From an uncultured Acidobacteriota bacterium (GTDB lineage Bacteria > Acidobacteriota > Thermoanaerobaculia > Multivoradales > DATKCC01): a stretch of DNA of 64,000 nucleotides. Both the position numbers and the translations under genes were made by a program. Position 1 is the stretch's first letter. The number at the start of each line of letters is the position of its first letter. The stretch covers positions 27,749-91,748 of the forward strand of contig CAWJLS010000001.1 in assembly GCA_963843755.1 (NCBI GenBank), read 5' to 3'. Shown piece after piece: positions 28,301 to 57,761 of the stretch. The notes below the pieces were generated by a model. That model was not told the DNA's origin, ran no database searches, and saw nothing but the letters and a program-made list of their open reading frames with translations.

Positions 28301-28852
28301 ATGAACATCGAATACGTGGGTAGGAACTACACCGTGGACGACAGCGTCCGGGCATATATCGAGGGCAAGCTGGGCAAGGTGAGCAAGTTCGTCCAGGAGC
28401 CGGTCGAGATCCGGGTGACCCTCGAGACCGAAAAACACCGCCACATCGCGGAGCTCCACATCGCGCACAAGAACGGGGTCTTCCAGGCCACCGAAGAGAC
28501 GGGGGACATGTACGACGCCCTCAACATGGCCCTCGAGAAGCTCGAAAAGCAGGTCCGGCGGTCGAAGAAGAAGGCGATCGACCGCCGTCGGCGCGCCGAC
28601 AGAACTGAGACCAACGGCCAGCGGTGGCCGCTCGAGGTGTTCGCCCCGGGCAGCTTCGCGGCCGGCGCCGAGCGCAAGATCATCAAGACCACCCATCTGC
28701 CCATCAAGCCGATGTCCATCGAGGAGGCCGCCCTCCTTCTCGAAGGGGCGAAGAACGAGTTCATCGTCTTCCGCGACTCCACCACCGACCGGGTGAGCGT
28801 CCTCTACAAGCGCAAGGACGAGAACTACGGCCTGATCGCGCCCGAGTTCTGA
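28301..28852 (+). CDS. hpf: Ribosome hibernation promoting factor (long HPF)
   Basis: Ribosomal S30AE N-domain (DMYDALNMALEKLEKQVRR) plus C-terminal KPMSIEEA...YKRKDENYGLI. Confidence 0.93.
   Translation: MNIEYVGRNYTVDDSVRAYIEGKLGKVSKFVQEPVEIRVTLETEKHRHIAELHIAHKNGVFQATEETGDMYDALNMALEKLEKQVRRSKKKAIDRRRRADRTETNGQRWPLEVFAPGSFAAGAERKIIKTTHLPIKPMSIEEAALLLEGAKNEFIVFRDSTTDRVSVLYKRKDENYGLIAPEF
28586..28601. promoter_or_regulatory. parS-like palindrome copy inside hpf
   Basis: CGTCGGCGCGCCGACA, 15/16 match to TGTCGGCGCGCCGACA. Confidence 0.55.
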
Positions 28853-35283: not shown

Positions 35284-36705
35284 ATGACGCGAACACCACG
35301 CCGCTTCTTCATCGAAACCTGGGGCTGCCAGATGAACGAGCTGGACACCCAGCGCATGGCAGGCCAGCTCATGCAGCAGGGCATGCTCCCGACCCGGGAG
35401 GCGGCCGAGGCCGACCTGGTCCTGCTCAACTCGTGCAGCGTTCGTGAAAATGCGCAGAACAAGGTCTACTCGCGCATCGGGGAGTACCGGGCGTTCAAGA
35501 GCGAGCGGGAGGTGCTGATCGGCCTGTGCGGCTGCGTCGCCCAGCAGGAGGGGGAGGCCGCCCTCGACCGCGCCCCCGAGCTCGACTTCGTCCTCGGCCC
35601 GGCCCGGGTCGGCGAGCTCCGGGACATCGTCGCCCGCCGCCGGGCGGGGGAGCGGGTGGTGGCCACCGGCTTCCCGGAAGAGCGCGCGTTCGATCTCGAC
35701 GCCATCTCCCGCGACGGCGTCTACAAGGGCATGGTGACCTGCATCGAAGGGTGCGACAAGCGGTGCACCTTCTGCATCGTGCCCAGCACCCGCGGCCCCG
35801 AGCGCTGTCGCCCGATGGCCGAGATCCTGCGCGAGGTGCGCCACCTGGTCGACTACGGCTTCCGCGAGATCGAGCTCCTCGGCCAGACGATCAACCACTG
35901 GCGCGAGCCCGACCACCCGGCCGGGCCCTCGTCGAATAGTCCTAACCAACACAAAGGAAAGGACTTCGCCGACCTCCTGGACGCGGTGGCGACGATCCCC
36001 GGCGTCGAGCGGCTGCGCTTCATCACCTCCTACCCGCGGGACTTCACGCCCGCCATGATCGCCGCGTTCGCCCGGCACGAGGCCATCTGCCCCTACCTCC
36101 ACCTGCCGGTCCAGTCCGGCTCCGACCCGGTGCTGCGCCGCATGGGGCGGGGCTACACGGTGGGCTCCTACCTCGCGCTGATCGACCAGATCCGCGAGGC
36201 CCGCCCCGGCGTGGTCTTCTCGACCGACCTGATCGTCGGCTTCCCGGGAGAGACGGAGGAGCAGTTCGAAGAGACGGTGCGGCTGATCGAGCGGGTGCGC
36301 TACGGCTCGGTCTACGCCTTCAAGTACTCACCCCGGCCGGGGACCGCGGCGCCACGGCTCGACGGCACGGTCGACCCGGAGGTGGCCAACCGCCGGCTGA
36401 ACGACCTGTTCGCCGTCCAGGCCGAGATCCAGAGGGAGCTCAACGCGGCGCTGGTGGGGGAGCGGTTCGAGGTCATCGTCACCGGGTGGGGGAAGGAGCC
36501 CGGGTTCCAGACCGGCCGTACCCCGTGCCACCGCATGGTGAACTTCGCCGCCGGCCCCCACCCGACCGCCCTCGGCAGCCTGGTCGAGGTGGAGATCGAC
36601 CGGTCGTATCCTCATAGCCTGATCGGGCATCGAGTGGGCGTGGGGGCGGGGGAGGAGCAGGACGCGGCGACGGAGCGGGGGCCGCGCTTGGCCGTCTTGC
36701 GGTAG
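35284..36705 (+). CDS. miaB: tRNA-2-methylthio-N6-dimethylallyladenosine synthase
   Basis: TWGCQMN, NSCSVR, GCVAQ, radical SAM GCDKRCTFC, HLPVQSGS, YSPRPGT, TRAM domain. Confidence 0.95.
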   Translation: MTRTPRRFFIETWGCQMNELDTQRMAGQLMQQGMLPTREAAEADLVLLNSCSVRENAQNKVYSRIGEYRAFKSEREVLIGLCGCVAQQEGEAALDRAPELDFVLGPARVGELRDIVARRRAGERVVATGFPEERAFDLDAISRDGVYKGMVTCIEGCDKRCTFCIVPSTRGPERCRPMAEILREVRHLVDYGFREIELLGQTINHWREPDHPAGPSSNSPNQHKGKDFADLLDAVATIPGVERLRFITSYPRDFTPAMIAAFARHEAICPYLHLPVQSGSDPVLRRMGRGYTVGSYLALIDQIREARPGVVFSTDLIVGFPGETEEQFEETVRLIERVRYGSVYAFKYSPRPGTAAPRLDGTVDPEVANRRLNDLFAVQAEIQRELNAALVGERFEVIVTGWGKEPGFQTGRTPCHRMVNFAAGPHPTALGSLVEVEIDRSYPHSLIGHRVGVGAGEEQDAATERGPRLAVLR

Positions 36706-37132: not shown

Positions 37133-37161
37133 TTGACCTCACCCGACCCCACGATCAGAAT
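37133..37161 (+). promoter_or_regulatory. Sigma70 promoter, likely leaderless transcript
   Basis: TTGACC-N17-CAGAAT-N6-ATG, no Shine-Dalgarno. Confidence 0.65.
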
Positions 37162-37167
37162 ACCCCC

Positions 37168-37668
37168 ATGACCGAAACCTCCGACGCGCTTCGCATGGAG
37201 ATCAAAGGGTTGATGCTCGACCCCGCCTCCAACGTGCCCATCGTCATCCTGCGCGACGAAGAGAGCGACGTCTTCCTCCCGATCTGGATCGGTGTGTTCG
37301 AGGCCAACGCCATCGCCCTGCGCATCGAAGGAGTCGAGCCGCCGCGCCCGATGACCCACGATCTCCTGCTGGCGACGCTCACCCATCTCGGCGCGGCGAT
37401 CGAGCGCATCGTCATCTCCGACCTGCGAGACAGCACCTTCTTCGCCCGCATCCACCTCGACCGCGGCGGGACCAAGATGACCCTCGACTCCCGCCCCAGC
37501 GACGCCATCGCCCTCGCCCTGCGCGCCGACGCCCCCATCTTCGTCCTGCGGGCCGTCCTCGAGAAGGCCCACGCCGTCGACCACTCCCACGAGGCCACCG
37601 AAGAAGAGAAGATCCGCAAGATGCTCGAAGAGCTCGGCCCCGAGGATCTCGGCAAGTACACCATGTAG
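37168..37668 (+). CDS. Bifunctional nuclease family (DUF151) protein
   Basis: LPIWIGVFEANAI, RPMTHDLL, FFARIHL, DSRPSDAIALALR. Confidence 0.92.
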   Translation: MTETSDALRMEIKGLMLDPASNVPIVILRDEESDVFLPIWIGVFEANAIALRIEGVEPPRPMTHDLLLATLTHLGAAIERIVISDLRDSTFFARIHLDRGGTKMTLDSRPSDAIALALRADAPIFVLRAVLEKAHAVDHSHEATEEEKIRKMLEELGPEDLGKYTM

Positions 37669-37672
37669 TCCC

Positions 37673-37717
37673 GGCCAGCGATCCCGCCCCTGTGGGCCCT
37701 CCGCGGGATCGCTGGCC
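37673..37717 (+). terminator. Strong hairpin after the DUF151 gene
   Basis: 15-bp perfect stem GGCCAGCGATCCCGC/GCGGGATCGCTGGCC; no U-tract. Confidence 0.6.
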
Positions 37718-37782: not shown

Positions 37783-37804
37783 GGATGTCGGCGCGCCGAC
37801 ATCC
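37783..37804. promoter_or_regulatory. parS-like palindrome copy 1 (22-bp perfect palindrome)
   Basis: GGATGTCGGCGCGCCGACATCC; 16-bp core at 37786-37801. Confidence 0.65.
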
Positions 37805-37863: not shown

Positions 37864-37879
37864 TGTCGGCGCGCCGACA
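37864..37879. promoter_or_regulatory. parS-like palindrome copy 2
   Basis: TGTCGGCGCGCCGACA, perfect. Confidence 0.65.
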
Positions 37880-37995
37880 GACGACCGCGCGCGGCACCGT
37901 CGCGCGCCGGGCCGGTCGCGAGGGGCCCGGTGCACGGGGCCGTCCGGGCGTCCCCCCGCGCGCGAACCGGACCCCAGGCCACCGAGCGTTCGGGC

Positions 37996-38011
37996 GGTCG
38001 GCGCGCCGACA
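37996..38011. promoter_or_regulatory. parS-like palindrome copy 3
   Basis: GGTCGGCGCGCCGACA, 15/16. Confidence 0.6.
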
Positions 38012-38106
38012 GGGCCTCTGCCGCCCACCCGGACCCCGCCGGTCGCCACCCCGTACGCGCCCGTGCGCCGAACGCCTCCGCGGCGCCGCGATCCTGGTCC
38101 CGCGGG

Positions 38107-38135
38107 TTGACCTCGTCCGAGCCATTCTGTACATT
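38107..38135 (+). promoter_or_regulatory. Sigma70 promoter for parAB
   Basis: TTGACC-N17-TACATT, 11 nt before ATG, no Shine-Dalgarno. Confidence 0.7.
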
Positions 38136-38146
38136 CCCGCCGACCT

Positions 38147-38905
38147 ATGATCATCGCGATCACCAATCAGAAGGGCGGCGTCGGCAAGACCACGACCGCC
38201 ATCAACCTCTCCGCAGCGCTCGCCAACAAGGGGCTCAAGACTCTCCTGGTCGACCTCGATCCTCAGGCGAACAGCTCGATGTCCTTCATGGACGTCCACG
38301 ACCTGGGCCAGTCGATCTACGAGGCGCTCACCGAGCCCGAGATCACCGTCGAATCCATCACGCGGCCGGTCGAGCAGATTCCCCATCTCGACCTGGCGCC
38401 CGCGGCGATCTCTCTCGCCAAGATCGAGTCGAAGCTCCTGGGCGAGCTCGACAGTCACTTCCGGCTCAAGGACGAGCTCGCGTCGGTGCGGGACGTCTAC
38501 GACAACATCATCATCGACACGCCCCCGACGCTCGGCATCATCACGGTCAACGCCCTGGTGGCCGCGACCCACGTGCTGGTGCCGATCCAGTCGAGCTACT
38601 TCGCCCTGGAAGGGACCGACGACCTGCTGGAGACGATCGACAAGATCAAGCAGCGGGCCAACCCGGAGCTGCAGCTCCTGGGCGCGCTGATCACGCTCTA
38701 CGACAAGCGGACCCTGCTGTCGCGCGACATCCAGGACCAGATCAGCGGCGTGTTCGGCGACAAGGTGTTCAAGACGCTGATCACCAAGAGCGTCCGCCTC
38801 GAGGAGAGTCCGGCGTACCACGAGTCGATCTTCAGCTTCGCGCCCAACTCGAGCGGAGCCGCCGAGTACTACCAGTTGTCGGAAGAGGTTCTGAGCCGGG
38901 TCTGA
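38147..38905 (+). CDS. parA: ParA/Soj-family ATPase
   Basis: Deviant Walker A NQKGGVGKTT, LVDLDPQAN, IIDTPP, VLVPIQSSYFALEG; no N-terminal HTH. Confidence 0.95.
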   Translation: MIIAITNQKGGVGKTTTAINLSAALANKGLKTLLVDLDPQANSSMSFMDVHDLGQSIYEALTEPEITVESITRPVEQIPHLDLAPAAISLAKIESKLLGELDSHFRLKDELASVRDVYDNIIIDTPPTLGIITVNALVAATHVLVPIQSSYFALEGTDDLLETIDKIKQRANPELQLLGALITLYDKRTLLSRDIQDQISGVFGDKVFKTLITKSVRLEESPAYHESIFSFAPNSSGAAEYYQLSEEVLSRV

Positions 38906-39000
38906 GACCCGAACGCCGGACCGGGGCGGGCCGCGCGCCGGGCCCGAGCGGAGACCGGGCGCGGTCGCAGCCGAGACGGACGACGAGAGGAGACGCGGGG

Positions 39001-39903
39001 ATGACGACGAAGAAGCGCGGCTTGCCGGTGCGGGTCAAGATGCGGCACGACAACCACTTCGTGGAGGAGCTCACGACGCGCCACGAGGTGCCGGTCGGTC
39101 GCATGGTCGCCCTGGCGAACGTCGAGCCCGACCCCCACCAGCCGCGCACCATCATGGGCGACCTCGCCGACCTGGTGGCCTCGGTCCGGGAGCGCGGCGT
39201 CCTCGAGCCGATCCTCGTCCGCCGGATCGACACCGACGGCGACGGGGAGGAGGACGGCACCGACGACGACCGCGCGGATGCCGAGCGCGCCGAAACCTTC
39301 CGCATCATCTCCGGTGAGCGCCGCTACCGCGCCGCGCAGCAGGCCGGGCTGTTCGAGGTGCCGGTCATCGAGATGGAGGTGACCGAGCAAGAGGCGCTCG
39401 AGATCGCCCTGATCGAGAACCTCCAGCGCAAGGACCTCACCCCCTTCGAAGAGGCCGAGGGCTACCAGACCCTGGCCCAGCTCCACGGCTACACCCACGA
39501 GGAGATCTCCGAGGCGGTGGGGAAGTCCCGCACCGTGATCACCGAGAGCCTCGCCCTCCTCCAGATGCCGCCGCGGGTGCGCGACGCGGTCCAGGCCCTG
39601 GGGATCACCACCAAGTCGCTTCTGCTCGAGGTGTTGAAGGCGGGGAGCGAGGAGGAGATGATCCGCCTGCTCGAAGAGGTCTCGAGCCACGGCCTCAACC
39701 GCGACGACCTGCGCCAGCGTTTGCGCCGGCGCGACCGGGCGACCAGCAAGCCGCGGCGCACGCCCTACGCTTTCAAGTTCCGGGCCCCGGACAAGAGCTA
39801 CACCCTCAACCTCACCTTCCGCCAGAGCGAGGTCGACCGCCAGGATCTGATCCAGGCCCTGGAGCAGATCCTCGGCGAGCTCCGCCAGCAGGCGGCCAGC
39901 TAG
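39001..39903 (+). CDS. parB: ParB/Spo0J-family CTP clamp protein with divergent HTH
   Basis: PHQPR, GVLEPILVR, ISGERRYRA, IENLQRKDL..FEEA, HTH THEEISEAVGKSR; ATG 39001. Confidence 0.92.
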   Translation: MTTKKRGLPVRVKMRHDNHFVEELTTRHEVPVGRMVALANVEPDPHQPRTIMGDLADLVASVRERGVLEPILVRRIDTDGDGEEDGTDDDRADAERAETFRIISGERRYRAAQQAGLFEVPVIEMEVTEQEALEIALIENLQRKDLTPFEEAEGYQTLAQLHGYTHEEISEAVGKSRTVITESLALLQMPPRVRDAVQALGITTKSLLLEVLKAGSEEEMIRLLEEVSSHGLNRDDLRQRLRRRDRATSKPRRTPYAFKFRAPDKSYTLNLTFRQSEVDRQDLIQALEQILGELRQQAAS

Positions 39904-40443: not shown

Positions 40444-40471
40444 ACTTTACATAATGTATCTTATCGGACCC
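40444..40471 (-). other. dif site (XerC/XerD chromosome dimer resolution)
   Basis: Minus strand GGGTCCGATAA-GATACA-TTATGTAAAGT: 11-6-11 layout; XerD arm 10/11 to B. subtilis TTATGTAAACT, 9/11 to E. coli TTATGTTAAAT; intergenic; gene strand bias flips here. Confidence 0.88.
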
Positions 40472-41075: not shown

Positions 41076-43463
41076 GTGCGGTGGTTGCTCGACCGGTACC
41101 TCCTTCGGGAAATCGCAGGCCCTCTTGGCCTCGGTTTCCTCGTCTACACGTTCATCCTCCTGCTGCAGGCGCTGTTCAAGTCGGCGGAGATGATCATCCG
41201 TCGGGGGCTCCCCGTGTCGACGGTCGGCGAGCTGCTGGCCCTGTCGCTGCCCAACATCGTCGTCCTCACCATCCCGATGTCGCTGCTTTTCGGGGTGCTG
41301 ATCGCCATCGGCCGGATGTCGTCGGACAGCGAGCTGGTGGCCATGCGGGCGACCGGCATCAGCCTGCTCAGCCTGTACCGGCCGATCCTCCTCCTCTCCA
41401 CCTTCTTCTTCCTGGTCAACACGGTGTTGATGGTCTGGGTGCTCCCCTGGGGCAACCACCGGCTGCAGCTCGAGCGGCTCGACATCCTCACCCAGAGCAT
41501 CTCGACCCAGGTCGAGCCGCGGATCTTCTGGGACGAGTGGGAGGACCAGGTGCTCTACGTCTTCGAGACCTCGGAGAGCGGAGACTCCTGGCGCGGCGTC
41601 TTCCTCGCCCAGTCGATCCCGTCGACCCACACCAACCAGGTGACCGTCGCCGAGCGCGGCCGGGTCCGGGTCGATCGCGACGGCGAACGGGTCGTGCTCG
41701 AGCTCTCGAACGCCCAGGTCCACGAGGTCGACCTGTCGAAGCCGGACTCCTACCAGATCAGCTCCCACGACAGCCTGGAGGTGGTGCTCGAAGACCAGTT
41801 CTCCACCGAGCAACGGGCGCAGATCTCCGCCTCGAAAGGAGTCCGGGAGCTCAGCCTGCCGGAGCTCACTCAGTGGATGCACGACCCGAAGCGCACGGCG
41901 GAGACCCGCCGCCTGGCCCGGGTCGAGATCCACAAGAAGTTCTCGATCCCGTTCGCCTGCATCGTGTTCGGGATCTTCGCGTTGCCGCTCGGCTTCGACA
42001 CCAGCCGCGGTGGCAAGGCGTCCGGGTTCGCGCTCTCGATCCTGGTGATCGTCGTCTACTGGGTGCTGCTCGACACCGGCGAGAAATCCGCGGAGGCCGG
42101 CAACCTGGCGCCGTGGCTCGCCATGTGGGGTCCCAACATCCTCCTGTCCGGCCTCGGGCTCTTCCTGCTCGCCCGGCGCAACCGCGACAAGAGCCTGCTG
42201 CTGACCAAGATCGACCGCTGGATCCGCCGGGATCTGTGGGCCCGGGTCCACTTCTTCCAGCGGCGCCGCCAGGAGCGGGCGGCCCGCCGGCGGGCCGTGC
42301 GGCTCGAGCGGGAGCGCGCGCGCCACGACGACCCGCACCTGGTCATCCGGCTCCCCCGCGTCCGGGTCTGGGTGCCGAACCTGATCGACCGCTACGTCTT
42401 CCGCGTCTTCACCAGCGTCTTCGGCCTGGTCCTCCTGTCGGGGCTCTCGATCTACCTGGTGGCGGACCTGACCGGCAAGGCGGACGAGATCATGAAGAAT
42501 CACGTCCCCCGATCGGTGATCCTGCAGTACTACAAGTACTCGTCGCTTCAGATGTTCTACGAGATCTCGCCGATCCTCGTGCTGGTGGCGACGCTCATCA
42601 CCTTCAGCCTGCTGTCGAAGTCCAACGAGGTCATGGCCTTCAAGGCGCTCGGCGTCAGCCTCTACCGGCTGGCCGTGCCGGCGGTGGCGGCGGCGCTGGC
42701 GATCACGATCTTCACCGCCTTCCTGGAGACCGAGGTCCTCCCCGCCTCCAACGAGAAGGTGGCGCGCCTCGACGACCGGATCCGCGGACGCGAGACCGCG
42801 CGGACCTATCGCCGCGCCGACAGGCAGTGGCTCTTCGGGCAGGACCGCTATATCTACAACTACATCCACTACGACCCCGAGCGCCAGACGCTCCACCGGC
42901 TGCAGGTGTTCGAGTTCGATCCGGACACCCACCAGCTCGTCGGCCGCCTGGTCGCCCAGCGTGCCACCTACGATCACGACGGATGGTGGAAGTTCGAGGA
43001 CGGCTGGTCGCGGACCTTCTCCGACAAGCGGGTCAGCCAGTACGACCGCTTCGCCGGCGACGTCCTCGGCCGCTTCCCCGAGGACCCCCACTACTTCGAC
43101 AGCGAGATCCGCCCGCCCGAGCAGATGAGCTACGGCCAGCTCAAGGACTACATCGGCGAGGTGGAACGGAGCGGCCAGTCGGTGCCGGAGCTCAAGGTGC
43201 AGCTCCAGAGCAAGATCGCCTACCCGGCGATCAGCCTGGTCATGGCGCTGGTCGCCCTCCCCTTCGCGTTCCGGCTGGGGCGGCAGGGCGCGCTCTACGG
43301 CGTCGGTCTGTCGATCGTCCTGGGGATGGTCTTCCTGGCGATCTACGCCTTCTTCACCACCCTCGGCGAGGCCGGTGCGCTGCCACCCATGGTCGCGGTA
43401 TGGAGCCCGAACGTGGTCTTCGGGCTGTTCGCGGTCTACCTCTTCCTCGGCGTCAGAACCTGA
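41076..43463 (+). CDS. lptFG: Fused LptF-LptG LPS export permease
   Basis: Two tandem YjgP/YjgQ modules (LDRYLLREI...SSDSELVAMRATGISL; IDRYVFR...KSNEVMAFKALGVSL). Confidence 0.92.
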   Translation: MRWLLDRYLLREIAGPLGLGFLVYTFILLLQALFKSAEMIIRRGLPVSTVGELLALSLPNIVVLTIPMSLLFGVLIAIGRMSSDSELVAMRATGISLLSLYRPILLLSTFFFLVNTVLMVWVLPWGNHRLQLERLDILTQSISTQVEPRIFWDEWEDQVLYVFETSESGDSWRGVFLAQSIPSTHTNQVTVAERGRVRVDRDGERVVLELSNAQVHEVDLSKPDSYQISSHDSLEVVLEDQFSTEQRAQISASKGVRELSLPELTQWMHDPKRTAETRRLARVEIHKKFSIPFACIVFGIFALPLGFDTSRGGKASGFALSILVIVVYWVLLDTGEKSAEAGNLAPWLAMWGPNILLSGLGLFLLARRNRDKSLLLTKIDRWIRRDLWARVHFFQRRRQERAARRRAVRLERERARHDDPHLVIRLPRVRVWVPNLIDRYVFRVFTSVFGLVLLSGLSIYLVADLTGKADEIMKNHVPRSVILQYYKYSSLQMFYEISPILVLVATLITFSLLSKSNEVMAFKALGVSLYRLAVPAVAAALAITIFTAFLETEVLPASNEKVARLDDRIRGRETARTYRRADRQWLFGQDRYIYNYIHYDPERQTLHRLQVFEFDPDTHQLVGRLVAQRATYDHDGWWKFEDGWSRTFSDKRVSQYDRFAGDVLGRFPEDPHYFDSEIRPPEQMSYGQLKDYIGEVERSGQSVPELKVQLQSKIAYPAISLVMALVALPFAFRLGRQGALYGVGLSIVLGMVFLAIYAFFTTLGEAGALPPMVAVWSPNVVFGLFAVYLFLGVRT

Positions 43464-57745: not shown

Positions 57746-57761
57746 CGTCGGCGCGCCGACG
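57746..57761. promoter_or_regulatory. parS-like palindrome copy (may double as terminator hairpin)
   Basis: CGTCGGCGCGCCGACG, with the identical 14-bp core, between convergent hemE and acyl-CoA dehydrogenase. Confidence 0.5.

Follow-up and report, generated by a model that had tools for sequence, protein, structure and literature searches.

Does a ParB protein with altered DNA-contact residues have a DNA site of its own, and if so, where on the chromosome does it lie? This question is raised by an open reading frame at positions 39001-39903 (+) of a window of 64,000 nucleotides from the genome of an uncultured Acidobacteriota bacterium (assembly GCA_963843755.1, contig CAWJLS010000001.1). We conclude from sequence analyses that the gene encodes a second ParB, here called ParB2, which probably recognizes a new 16-bp palindrome, and that the protein, its own ParA and the palindrome lie beside the dif site at the replication terminus in much of the phylum Acidobacteriota, rather than at the origin where such systems normally work.

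The open reading frame translates to 300 amino acids with no stop, and matches ParB_N (PF02195, 3e-22), HTH_ParB (PF17762, 1e-17) and TIGR00180 (138.7 bits against a cut-off of 58.45). The protein was aligned with HMMER to T. thermophilus Spo0J (1vz0), M. xanthus ParB and Geobacillus Noc, and with MAFFT to the canonical ParB1 of the same genome. Both alignments placed GKSRTVITESLALLQMP opposite GKARSTVANALRLLQLP, and ITTKSLL opposite ITAGHAR. The recognition helix at 39520-39564 (+; residues 174-188) reads GKSRTVITESLALLQ, and is followed by KSLL at 39613-39624 (+; residues 205-208), where canonical ParB has GKSRSxVANxLRLL and SxGHAR. Counting from the GKSR motif gives R/S/Q/K at Caulobacter positions 173/179/184/201, with N178 changed to E and R181 to A, as stated in the preliminary description. 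Two further changes had not been listed, R204 to L and Q162 to H, both of which affect parS contacts conserved in ParB and in Noc (PMC7383237). In the numbering of ParB2, R177 corresponds to R173 (kept), E182 to N178, K205 to G201 and L208 to R204. These changes are not due to chance, since E182 is invariant, and K205, S206 and L208 are at least 90% conserved, across 44 family members that are only 46-82% identical overall. However, the position of the canonical Arg in LRLL is variable in the family and is not a conserved Ala.

The CTP-pocket motifs GERRYRAA (box II, residues 105-112) and ENLQRKDL (box III, residues 139-146) are located at 39313-39432 (+), and box I (QPR) at residues 47-49; Q47, P48, R49, G105, E106, R107, R108, E139, N140, Q142 and R143 are invariant. 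The acidic insertion in the N-terminal domain at 39226-39294 (+; about residues 76-98, DTDGDGEEDGTDDDRADAERAE), which had been noted in the preliminary description, is real and corresponds to a 17-residue gap against Spo0J. It is nevertheless found only in the close lineage of the window and in one relative, is absent from the rest of the family, is predicted to be a low-confidence, disordered loop (pLDDT 60-72), and carries no family-level meaning. The N-terminal peptide at 39001-39087 (+; residues 1-29), predicted to be disordered (pLDDT below 50), keeps KKRGLP and then carries the family-specific motif MRHDxH[FY]VEEL instead of GRGLxALL. Residues G7, L8, P9, M14, R15, H16, H19 and V21 are invariant in the 44 sequences, and the peptide is a candidate for ParA2-specific activation. 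The C-terminal domain at 39754-39900 (+; residues 252-300) is predicted to consist of two strands and a long helix, and is shared with relatives from mobile elements. Searches of the isolated N-terminal peptide and C-terminal domain against Pfam gave no significant family, and PHROGs gave only generic ParB and ParA matches. The AF2 model (pLDDT 86) had ParB, Noc and KorB as top Foldseek hits, and its DNA-binding domain superposed on Noc-NBS (6y93) at 1.7-1.9 Å and on ParB-parS (6s6h) at 2.5 Å, indicating that the predicted fold is unchanged.

The genome also contains a canonical rsmG-parA1-parB1-bactofilin locus with TGTTTCCCGTGAAACA, located on another contig, showing that the gene in the window is a paralogue. 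A recent duplication of ParB1 was rejected by the phylogenetic tree, in which the canonical clade (ParB1, the T. thermophilus and M. xanthus proteins and Noc) is separated by a branch with 100/99 support and ParB2 groups with uncharacterized ParBs from mobile elements. Membership in Noc was rejected by the score against TIGR04285 (141.3 bits against a cut-off of 315) and by the residues, and the N-terminus is basic and polar rather than a membrane-targeting helix. Among curated plasmids (PLSDB, tblastn), nothing that covers at least 80% of ParB2 exceeded about 32% identity, and the Isosphaeraceae pEP7_01 ParB has a different helix and no palindrome and does not belong to this clade.

We then searched for the DNA site. 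No canonical parS was found within 2 mismatches in the window, and the only 3-mismatch hit was at chance level. Instead, a perfect palindrome, TGTCGGCGCGCCGACA, is present at 37786-37801 and 37864-37879, and a third copy with 1 mismatch, GGTCGGCGCGCCGACA, at 37996-38011, all three upstream of parA2. We refer to this site as parS2. An outlying parS2-like site with 1 mismatch, CGTCGGCGCGCCGACA, lies at 28586-28601, about 12 kb left of dif. Two degenerate sites with 2 mismatches, TATCGCCGCGCCGACA at 42807-42822, right of dif, and CGTCGGCGCGCCGACG at 57746-57761, about 17 kb right of dif, are of doubtful function. These six are the only sites with up to 2 mismatches in the 5.05-Mb genome and lie within 29 kb around the gene, whereas 0.14 sites per window were expected from shuffled sequences.

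The same palindrome, TGTCGGCNNGCCGACA, was identified in 24 of 29 and 65 of 80 related loci at stereotyped positions, either -835 to -950 or +516 to +531 inside parB2. It was found in 87 of 201 genomes, as compared to 6 of 201 for the reversed control. Of these genomes, 86 were among the 119 ParB2-positive Acidobacteriota genomes and 1 among the 82 ParB2-negative genomes (Fisher p = 1e-27, not corrected for phylogeny), and the site was almost always located next to or inside parB2. However, 33 of the 119 ParB2-positive genomes lack an exact site, some loci showed none within 6 kb even when 2 mismatches were allowed, and in one family the single exact site lies 44-51 kb from parB2. Loci without a site within 1.5-6 kb mostly remained empty when rescanned at 2 mismatches. 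Inside parB2, synonymous codons are held to the palindrome, with TGT in 24/26, CGG in 24/26 and GCC in 23/26 sequences against backgrounds of 38%, 24% and 44%, and the three loci that break the in-gene site each have a perfect intergenic copy. Thus, the expectation in the preliminary description that the changed specificity residues imply a new DNA site is supported by position, co-occurrence and codon constraint. It is, however, not a switch of the parS-to-Noc type within chromosomal ParB, since the protein belongs to a separate clade and also changes residues that ParB and Noc share (N178 and R204).

The gene lies in a module, miaB-BFN-parA2-parB2, that ends at dif. Gene parA2 at 38147-38905 (+) encodes a 252-aa deviant-Walker-A ATPase of the ParA/Soj type, was found next to parB2 in 78 of 80 loci, and is preceded by a sigma-70-like promoter candidate at 38107-38135 (+; TTGACC-17-TACATT), which is a consensus match only, 12 bp upstream of the start codon. 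Upstream are the bifunctional-nuclease-domain (BFN) gene at 37156-37668 (+), followed by a 15-bp perfect hairpin at 37673-37717 and present in 71 of 80 loci, and miaB at 35284-36705 (+), present in 68 of 80 loci. As noted in the preliminary description, ParA2 has Ser at the position of the DNA-binding R218 of Soj (NSSGA, against KCRGA in ParA1). This position is Ser in 50-80% of 72 ParA2 sequences, and the Ser before it in at least 95%. The equivalent of R189 (SVRLEESP), which together with R218 is named as a residue for non-specific DNA binding (PMC3778016), is retained.

A dif-like XerC/D site, ACTTTACATAA-TGTATC-TTATCGGACCC, is located at 40444-40471 (+), 541 bp after the parB2 stop codon. 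Its core, CATAA-N6-TTAT[CG], occurs once in the 5.05-Mb genome, and XerD (372 bits) and paralogues are present. The same site follows parB2 in 20 of 30 and about 50 of 80 loci. In ten of ten complete or near-complete genomes, ParB1 is located 6-30 kb from dnaA, while ParB2 is located 0.42-0.49 genome lengths away. The GC skew on the contig of the window shifts in level at dif but does not change sign, which is weak evidence on its own, and a complete relative was therefore sampled. In that genome, the skew flips at 0.62-0.74 Mb with parB2 at 0.815 Mb, such that the switch lies about 60-190 kb from parB2 at coarse sampling. In complete genomes, the parS2 sites cluster around parB2. A second replicon was rejected, since the neighbors are housekeeping genes (miaB, lptFG, queD) and both ParBs are located on one chromosome in single-contig genomes.

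Taken together, we consider it likely, although every step from sequence to mechanism is inferred, that ParB2 is the centromere-binding subunit of a second ParABS system that does not overlap with the first. The helix-turn-helix keeps the canonical fold, as predicted, and the residues G-K-S-R, including the Arg that reads guanine 1 of parS, but replaces four other contacts (Q162H, N178E, G201K and R204L), from which we infer that it recognizes TGTCGGCNNGCCGACA and not TGTTNCACGTGAAACA. Site parS2 shares G1 and T2 with parS, and has C at position 6, as does the Noc site, where Noc uses a basic residue at position 201; which base each changed residue reads is reasoned from the Caulobacter and Noc structures. 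The system has probably been inherited vertically in Acidobacteriota since the capture of a par module of the mobile-element type. By analogy with studied ParBs, ParB2 dimers may load at parS2 as CTP-gated clamps, spread over the few kilobases that include dif, and stimulate the dedicated ATPase ParA2 through the family-specific N-terminal peptide. Since a ParA-driven positioning system holds a single cargo at mid-nucleoid and separates two cargoes, we hypothesize that the system keeps the unreplicated or unresolved terminus and dif at the future septum, and then separates the sister termini. A nucleoid-based ratchet is not assured, since ParA2 lacks one of the two Soj arginines needed for non-specific DNA binding.

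It is possible, although we regard it as somewhat less likely than not, that Acidobacteriota run two mitotic-like machines on one chromosome, with a canonical ParABS at the origin and a mobile-element-derived ParABS dedicated to the terminus, which actively positions and separates sister termini and couples dimer resolution and septum closure to a ParA motor. This would be the first motor-driven terminus segregation system, and a natural second ParB/parS pair that does not cross-react with the first. Reviews describe parS as origin-proximal and treat terminus segregation as a separate, ParABS-independent step (PMC7333895, PMC7022226). We found no published precedent for the 16-mer, its relatives or a terminus-located ParABS in the literature searched, and a Pelagibacter preprint matching terminus-proximal parS is unrelated. 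A conserved ParABS set fixed to dif across several classes would show that the ParB-CTP clamp and ParA motor have been recruited to the opposite end of the chromosome, offer a testable answer to how bacteria without MatP handle their termini, and represent a specificity change beyond the ParB-to-Noc path. A pair that does not cross-react would also be useful for multicolor labeling of DNA loci, for which ParB-parS and Noc-NBS are already used (PMC11109969, PMC11798528).

Of the alternatives, the one that survives best, although unlikely, is that ParA2 and ParB2 use the terminus only as a landmark to regulate cell division, in the manner of MipZ, PomZ or Noc, with ParA2 acting on FtsZ or the divisome and not on DNA transport. 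The Ser at the R218 position in most family members, the higher conservation of ParA2 than of ParB2 (61-79% against 43-71% identity), which fits an extra conserved partner, and the location at dif, where the septum closes, are consistent with this view. However, the R189-equivalent Arg and all ATPase motifs are kept, the best matches of ParA2 are segregation ParA/Soj structures (8ray, 1wcv), ParB2 has no N-terminal membrane-targeting helix such as that of Noc, and no FtsZ-related gene is linked.

A role mainly as a KorB-like autoregulator or local regulator, with parS2 as an operator for the parA2-parB2 promoter and no role in DNA positioning, is improbable. The site lies 70-100 bp upstream of parA2 in Thermoanaerobaculia, the three copies in the window lie 100-350 bp upstream of the promoter-like element, and plasmid-type par operons are probably often autoregulated. 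Yet, in many families the only site lies inside parB2, about 1.3 kb downstream of the promoter region, extra sites lie tens of kilobases away on both sides of dif, a dedicated ParA is co-encoded, and the CTP-clamp motifs are invariant. Even less probable is that the module is a leftover of a plasmid or Xer-integrating element that persists at dif without a chromosomal function. The nearest relatives outside the clade sit beside replication initiators, restriction-modification genes, toxin-antitoxin genes and transposases, the tree groups ParB2 with them, and dif may serve as an integration site for Xer-exploiting elements. Against this, the order miaB-BFN-parA2-parB2 is conserved in 68-78 of 80 loci across several classes, identity falls with taxonomic distance as expected for vertical descent, ParA2, the ParB2 motifs and the DNA site are under strong purifying selection, and no replication or mobility genes are nearby. 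Finally, neutral drift with retained binding to canonical parS is very unlikely despite the canonical fold, G-K-S-R and CTP motifs and the TGT...ACA ends of parS2, since G201, reported as absolutely conserved in extant ParB, and the conserved contacts N178 and R204 (PMC7383237) are all replaced by family-conserved residues, and the single canonical parS of the genome lies 1.7 kb from parB1 on a different contig from parB2.

Compared to canonical chromosomal ParABS (Soj/Spo0J-parS; e.g., T. thermophilus Spo0J 1vz0 and C. crescentus ParB 6t1f/6s6h), the system has the same domain architecture and predicted fold, an adjacent deviant-Walker-A ParA, and a 16-bp palindromic site with TGT...ACA ends, located inside or near parB with extra copies scattered over tens of kilobases. 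It differs in the four replaced DNA-contact residues, in the site core (CGGCNNGCCG and not TTNCACGTGAA), in the N-terminal peptide and C-terminal domain, in its location at dif and not near dnaA/rsmG, in its coexistence with a canonical system in the same chromosome, and in forming a separate clade (100/99 support). Noc-NBS of Firmicutes (6y93, 7nfu) is likewise a chromosomal ParB paralogue with altered specificity through changes in the same helix region, with a basic residue at position 201 and a site with C at position 6. However, Noc has Q173, K179, K184 and R201 and keeps N178 and R204, whereas ParB2 keeps R173 and changes N178 and R204. Noc also has no ParA of its own, has a membrane-targeting N-terminal helix, and binds many sites away from the terminus.

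Replicon-specific ParABS systems of multipartite genomes and plasmids, of which Vibrio cholerae ParAB2-parS2 and the Burkholderia systems are likely examples, also represent non-overlapping sets of ParA, ParB and site that coexist in one cell. The nearest relatives of ParB2 are par modules from mobile elements, and three of the four examined carry related in-gene palindromes, TGTCGGACGTCCGACA, TGTCGAACGTTCGACA and TGCCGGACGTCCGGCA. Here, both systems would act on one replicon, with ParB1 and ParB2 about half a genome apart on the same chromosome in single-contig genomes, and the second system marks the terminus and not a second origin. The system would work like the terminus organizers MatP-matS of enterobacteria and ZapT of Caulobacter, in that a sequence-specific protein bound to sites clustered around dif could position the terminus at the division site, and in one genus the sites are spaced about 85-100 kb apart over about 550 kb, which recalls the spread of matS sites. 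There is no homology. MatP is a ribbon-helix-helix protein and ZapT a MerR-type protein, neither with an NTPase motor, whereas the system described here has an inferred CTP clamp and an ATPase.

The region at 39001-39903 (+) is an open frame of 300 codons, matching Pfam ParB_N and HTH_ParB as well as NCBIfam TIGR00180, but scoring far below the Noc cut-off (141 against 315 bits). Because the G+C content is about 70%, long spurious ORFs overlap the real genes on several frames and strands in the region 37930-39903 and its neighbours, for example a 657-aa frame that runs through parA2 into parB2. Alignments of the homologues support the ATG at 39001 as the start of ParB2. HMMER alignments to solved ParB and Noc structures agreed with a MAFFT alignment that included the canonical ParB of the same genome: GKSRTVITESLALLQMP was placed opposite GK(A/S)RSTVxNALRLLxLP, and ITTKSLL was placed opposite (I/L)TAG(H/Q)AR. 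Counting from the GKSR motif, Caulobacter positions 173/179/184/201 read R/S/Q/K, while N178 becomes E and R181 becomes A. This result agrees with the preliminary description, which had assigned R/S/Q/K to these four positions.

According to Jalal et al. 2020 (PMC7383237), residues Q162, G170, K171, S172, N178 and R204 are parS contacts conserved in both ParB and Noc, R173 forms a hydrogen bond with guanine 1, and R201 of Noc reads C6:G-6. Thus, ParB2 keeps G-K-S-R and changes Q162H, N178E, G201K and R204L. These changes are not private. In 44 homologues that are only 46-82% identical overall, E182 is invariant and K205, S206 and L208 are at least 90% conserved, as are the CTP-pocket residues Q47, P48, R49, G105-E106-R107-R108, E139, N140, Q142 and R143. 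The AlphaFold2 model had a mean pLDDT of 86, and its DNA-binding domain superposed on Noc-NBS (6y93) at 1.7-1.9 A and on ParB-parS (6s6h) at 2.5 A. In the predicted structure the scaffold is unchanged and only the reading surface differs.

Other features of the preliminary description were refined. The acidic insertion, noted as about 20 residues in the CTPase domain, is real and spans residues 76-98, but it is confined to the close lineage of the window and one relative (locus L006) and is modelled as a low-confidence loop. The N-terminus, described as a partial ParA-activating KKRGL sequence, keeps KRGLP but then carries a family-invariant motif, MRHDxH[FY]VEEL, in place of GRGLxALL. ParA2 (38147-38905) has the deviant Walker A motif and the Arg equivalent to R189 of Soj. 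At the R218 position it has Ser, as had been noted, and this is the majority residue in 72 ParA2 sequences. R189 and R218 are the non-specific DNA-binding residues of Soj (PMC3778016).

The 5.05-Mb assembly has a second, higher-scoring ParB (189 bits) on another contig, C11, showing that ParB2 is a paralogue. The second protein is encoded in a canonical origin-type locus at C11:127410-131157, with the order rsmG-parA1-parB1 followed by a bactofilin gene (PF04519, 6e-28), an arrangement that recalls Myxococcus. It contains KKRGLGRGLDALL and GKSRSTVTNALRLL...TAGQARPLL. The only near-canonical parS of the genome, TGTTTCCCGTGAAACA, which has C at the seventh base, is located 1.7 kb upstream of this ParB, whereas no parS within 2 mismatches was found in the window. 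Some Acidobacteriota carry a third ParB (G160:C2:49548-49997 and G039:C2:800313, where G and C numbers denote sampled genomes and their contigs). In G160 it lies on a separate ~1-Mb contig, possibly a second replicon with its own partition system.

The new DNA site expected from the changed specificity residues exists. The 480-bp spacer upstream of parA2 contains TGTCGGCGCGCCGACA twice, plus a one-mismatch copy. Allowing 2 mismatches, six sites were found in the whole genome, all within 29 kb around parB2. Shuffles of the window expect 0.14 sites per window. One of the six, a one-mismatch parS2-like site at 28586-28601, 12 kb left of dif, lies inside a coding region. The palindrome TGTCGGC-NN-GCCGACA recurs in 24 of 29 loci from sampled phylum genomes, and in 65 of 80 named Acidobacteriota loci from Thermoanaerobaculia, Holophagales, Blastocatellia, Vicinamibacterales and one Terriglobia. 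Its positions are stereotyped, being either just upstream of parA2 or inside parB2 at the codons C-R-(R/L)-A-D-I just before the KS motif. Among 201 phylum genomes the exact pattern occurs in 87, as compared to 6 for the reversed control. Set against the presence of ParB2, the split is 86/33/1/81 (both, ParB2 only, site only, neither; Fisher p = 1e-27, not corrected for phylogeny). About 40% of the sampled phylum genomes, grouped in whole families (f26, f28, f35, f38 and f54 in our sampling), have only the canonical ParB and no parS2. The terminus system was therefore lost, or never gained, in some lineages, which make natural comparison groups. Where the site is in-gene, the codons are TGT in 24/26, CGG in 24/26 and GCC in 23/26 cases, against a background use in the same ORFs of 38%, 24% and 44%. 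The three loci that break the in-gene site (L100, L102 and L111) each have a perfect intergenic copy. Thus, the DNA sequence itself is under selection.

A dif-like site, ACTTTACATAA-TGTATC-TTATCGGACCC, is located 541 bp after the parB2 stop codon. Its core, CATAA-N6-TTAT[CG], occurs once in the entire genome, and XerD and paralogues are present. The same dif consensus follows parB2 in 20 of 30 and about 50 of 80 loci, mostly 30-300 bp after the stop codon. Synteny of miaB-BFN-parA2-parB2-dif(-lptFG) holds in 68-78 of 80 loci. The bifunctional-nuclease-domain gene (PF02577) sits immediately upstream of parA2 in 71 of 80 loci across the phylum, and is here followed by a perfect 15-bp hairpin (gene and hairpin at 37156-37717, hairpin at 37673-37717).

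In ten complete or near-complete genomes, ParB1 is 6-30 kb from dnaA, whereas ParB2 is 0.42-0.49 genome lengths away. In the complete genome G093, the sampled GC skew turns from + to - between 0.62 and 0.74 Mb, with parB2 at 0.815 Mb, and from - to + at about 3.7 Mb, with dnaA at 3.665 Mb. On the contig of the window the skew only shifts in level at dif, and a crude gene call gave 32+/16- on the left and 10+/20- on the right. In complete genomes the sites cluster around parB2, with 7 of 9 within 130 kb in G110 and 5 of 6 within 81 kb in G160. In one genus of the order to which the window belongs (G196:C1 3,166,871-3,717,401 and G186:C1 739,092-1,068,259) the sites have a changed outer base (GTCGGCCGGCCGAC core). 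In G196 seven sites are spaced about 85-100 kb apart across about 550 kb around parB2, which resembles a terminus-domain array more than a tight centromere cluster. Its ParB2 has an extra residue in the KS motif (AKKS).

A profile search of 1.84 billion representatives identified about 40-60 full-length ParB2 clusters. Below these were relatives that share the helix Glu, the KS motif and the C-terminal domain but lack the N-terminal motif. All four such relatives that we looked up lie in mobile-element contexts, their parA-parB pairs being located beside RepA_N/HTH_36, RPA, Phage_rep_O or Replic_Relax genes, or among restriction-modification genes, toxin-antitoxin genes and transposases. Three of the four, all uncharacterised, carry related 16-bp palindromes inside parB at the homologous codons, namely TGCCGGACGTCCGGCA, TGTCGAACGTTCGACA and TGTCGGACGTCCGACA (loci L134, at 4759 and 6553; L136/L137, at 6541/3671; and L140, at 8547 and 9865). 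Some have a second copy nearby, and together they represent a natural series of helix and site variants. A maximum-likelihood tree separated canonical ParB plus Noc (100/99 support) from a group that holds the monophyletic ParB2 clade (100/99) and these relatives. Identity to the protein of the window falls with taxonomic distance, from 58-68% within the order to about 47-50% within the class and 40-51% within the phylum, consistent with one ancient capture followed by vertical descent. Among matches in curated plasmids that cover at least 80% of the protein, nothing was closer than about 32% identity.

The rewritten reading surface, a cognate-looking palindrome, a dedicated ParA, linkage to dif and the terminus, and phylum-wide conservation are at least strongly supported. 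By analogy with studied ParABS systems, we infer CTP-gated loading of ParB2 at parS2 and spreading over dif, stimulation of ParA2 by the new N-terminal peptide, and no cross-reaction with ParABS1. ParA-type systems hold one cargo at mid-nucleoid and separate two. We therefore propose that the system would keep the terminus and dif at the future septum and then pull the resolved termini apart. The Ser at the R218 position of ParA2 leaves room for an alternative, in which the proteins serve as a division regulator in the manner of MipZ or PomZ. An operator-only role and a relic role are less likely, given the in-gene and distant sites and the depth of conservation.

Full-text searches of the literature found no mention of the 16-mer or its relatives, nor of a terminus-located ParABS, and reviews describe parS as origin-proximal. 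In the numbering of Jalal et al., parS2 reads G1 T2 C3 G4 G5 C6, and it is only inferred that E182 reads a cytosine in the new C3-G5 core. G1 and T2 are shared with parS, which fits the retained R173, and C6 is shared with the Noc site, which fits a basic residue at position 201.
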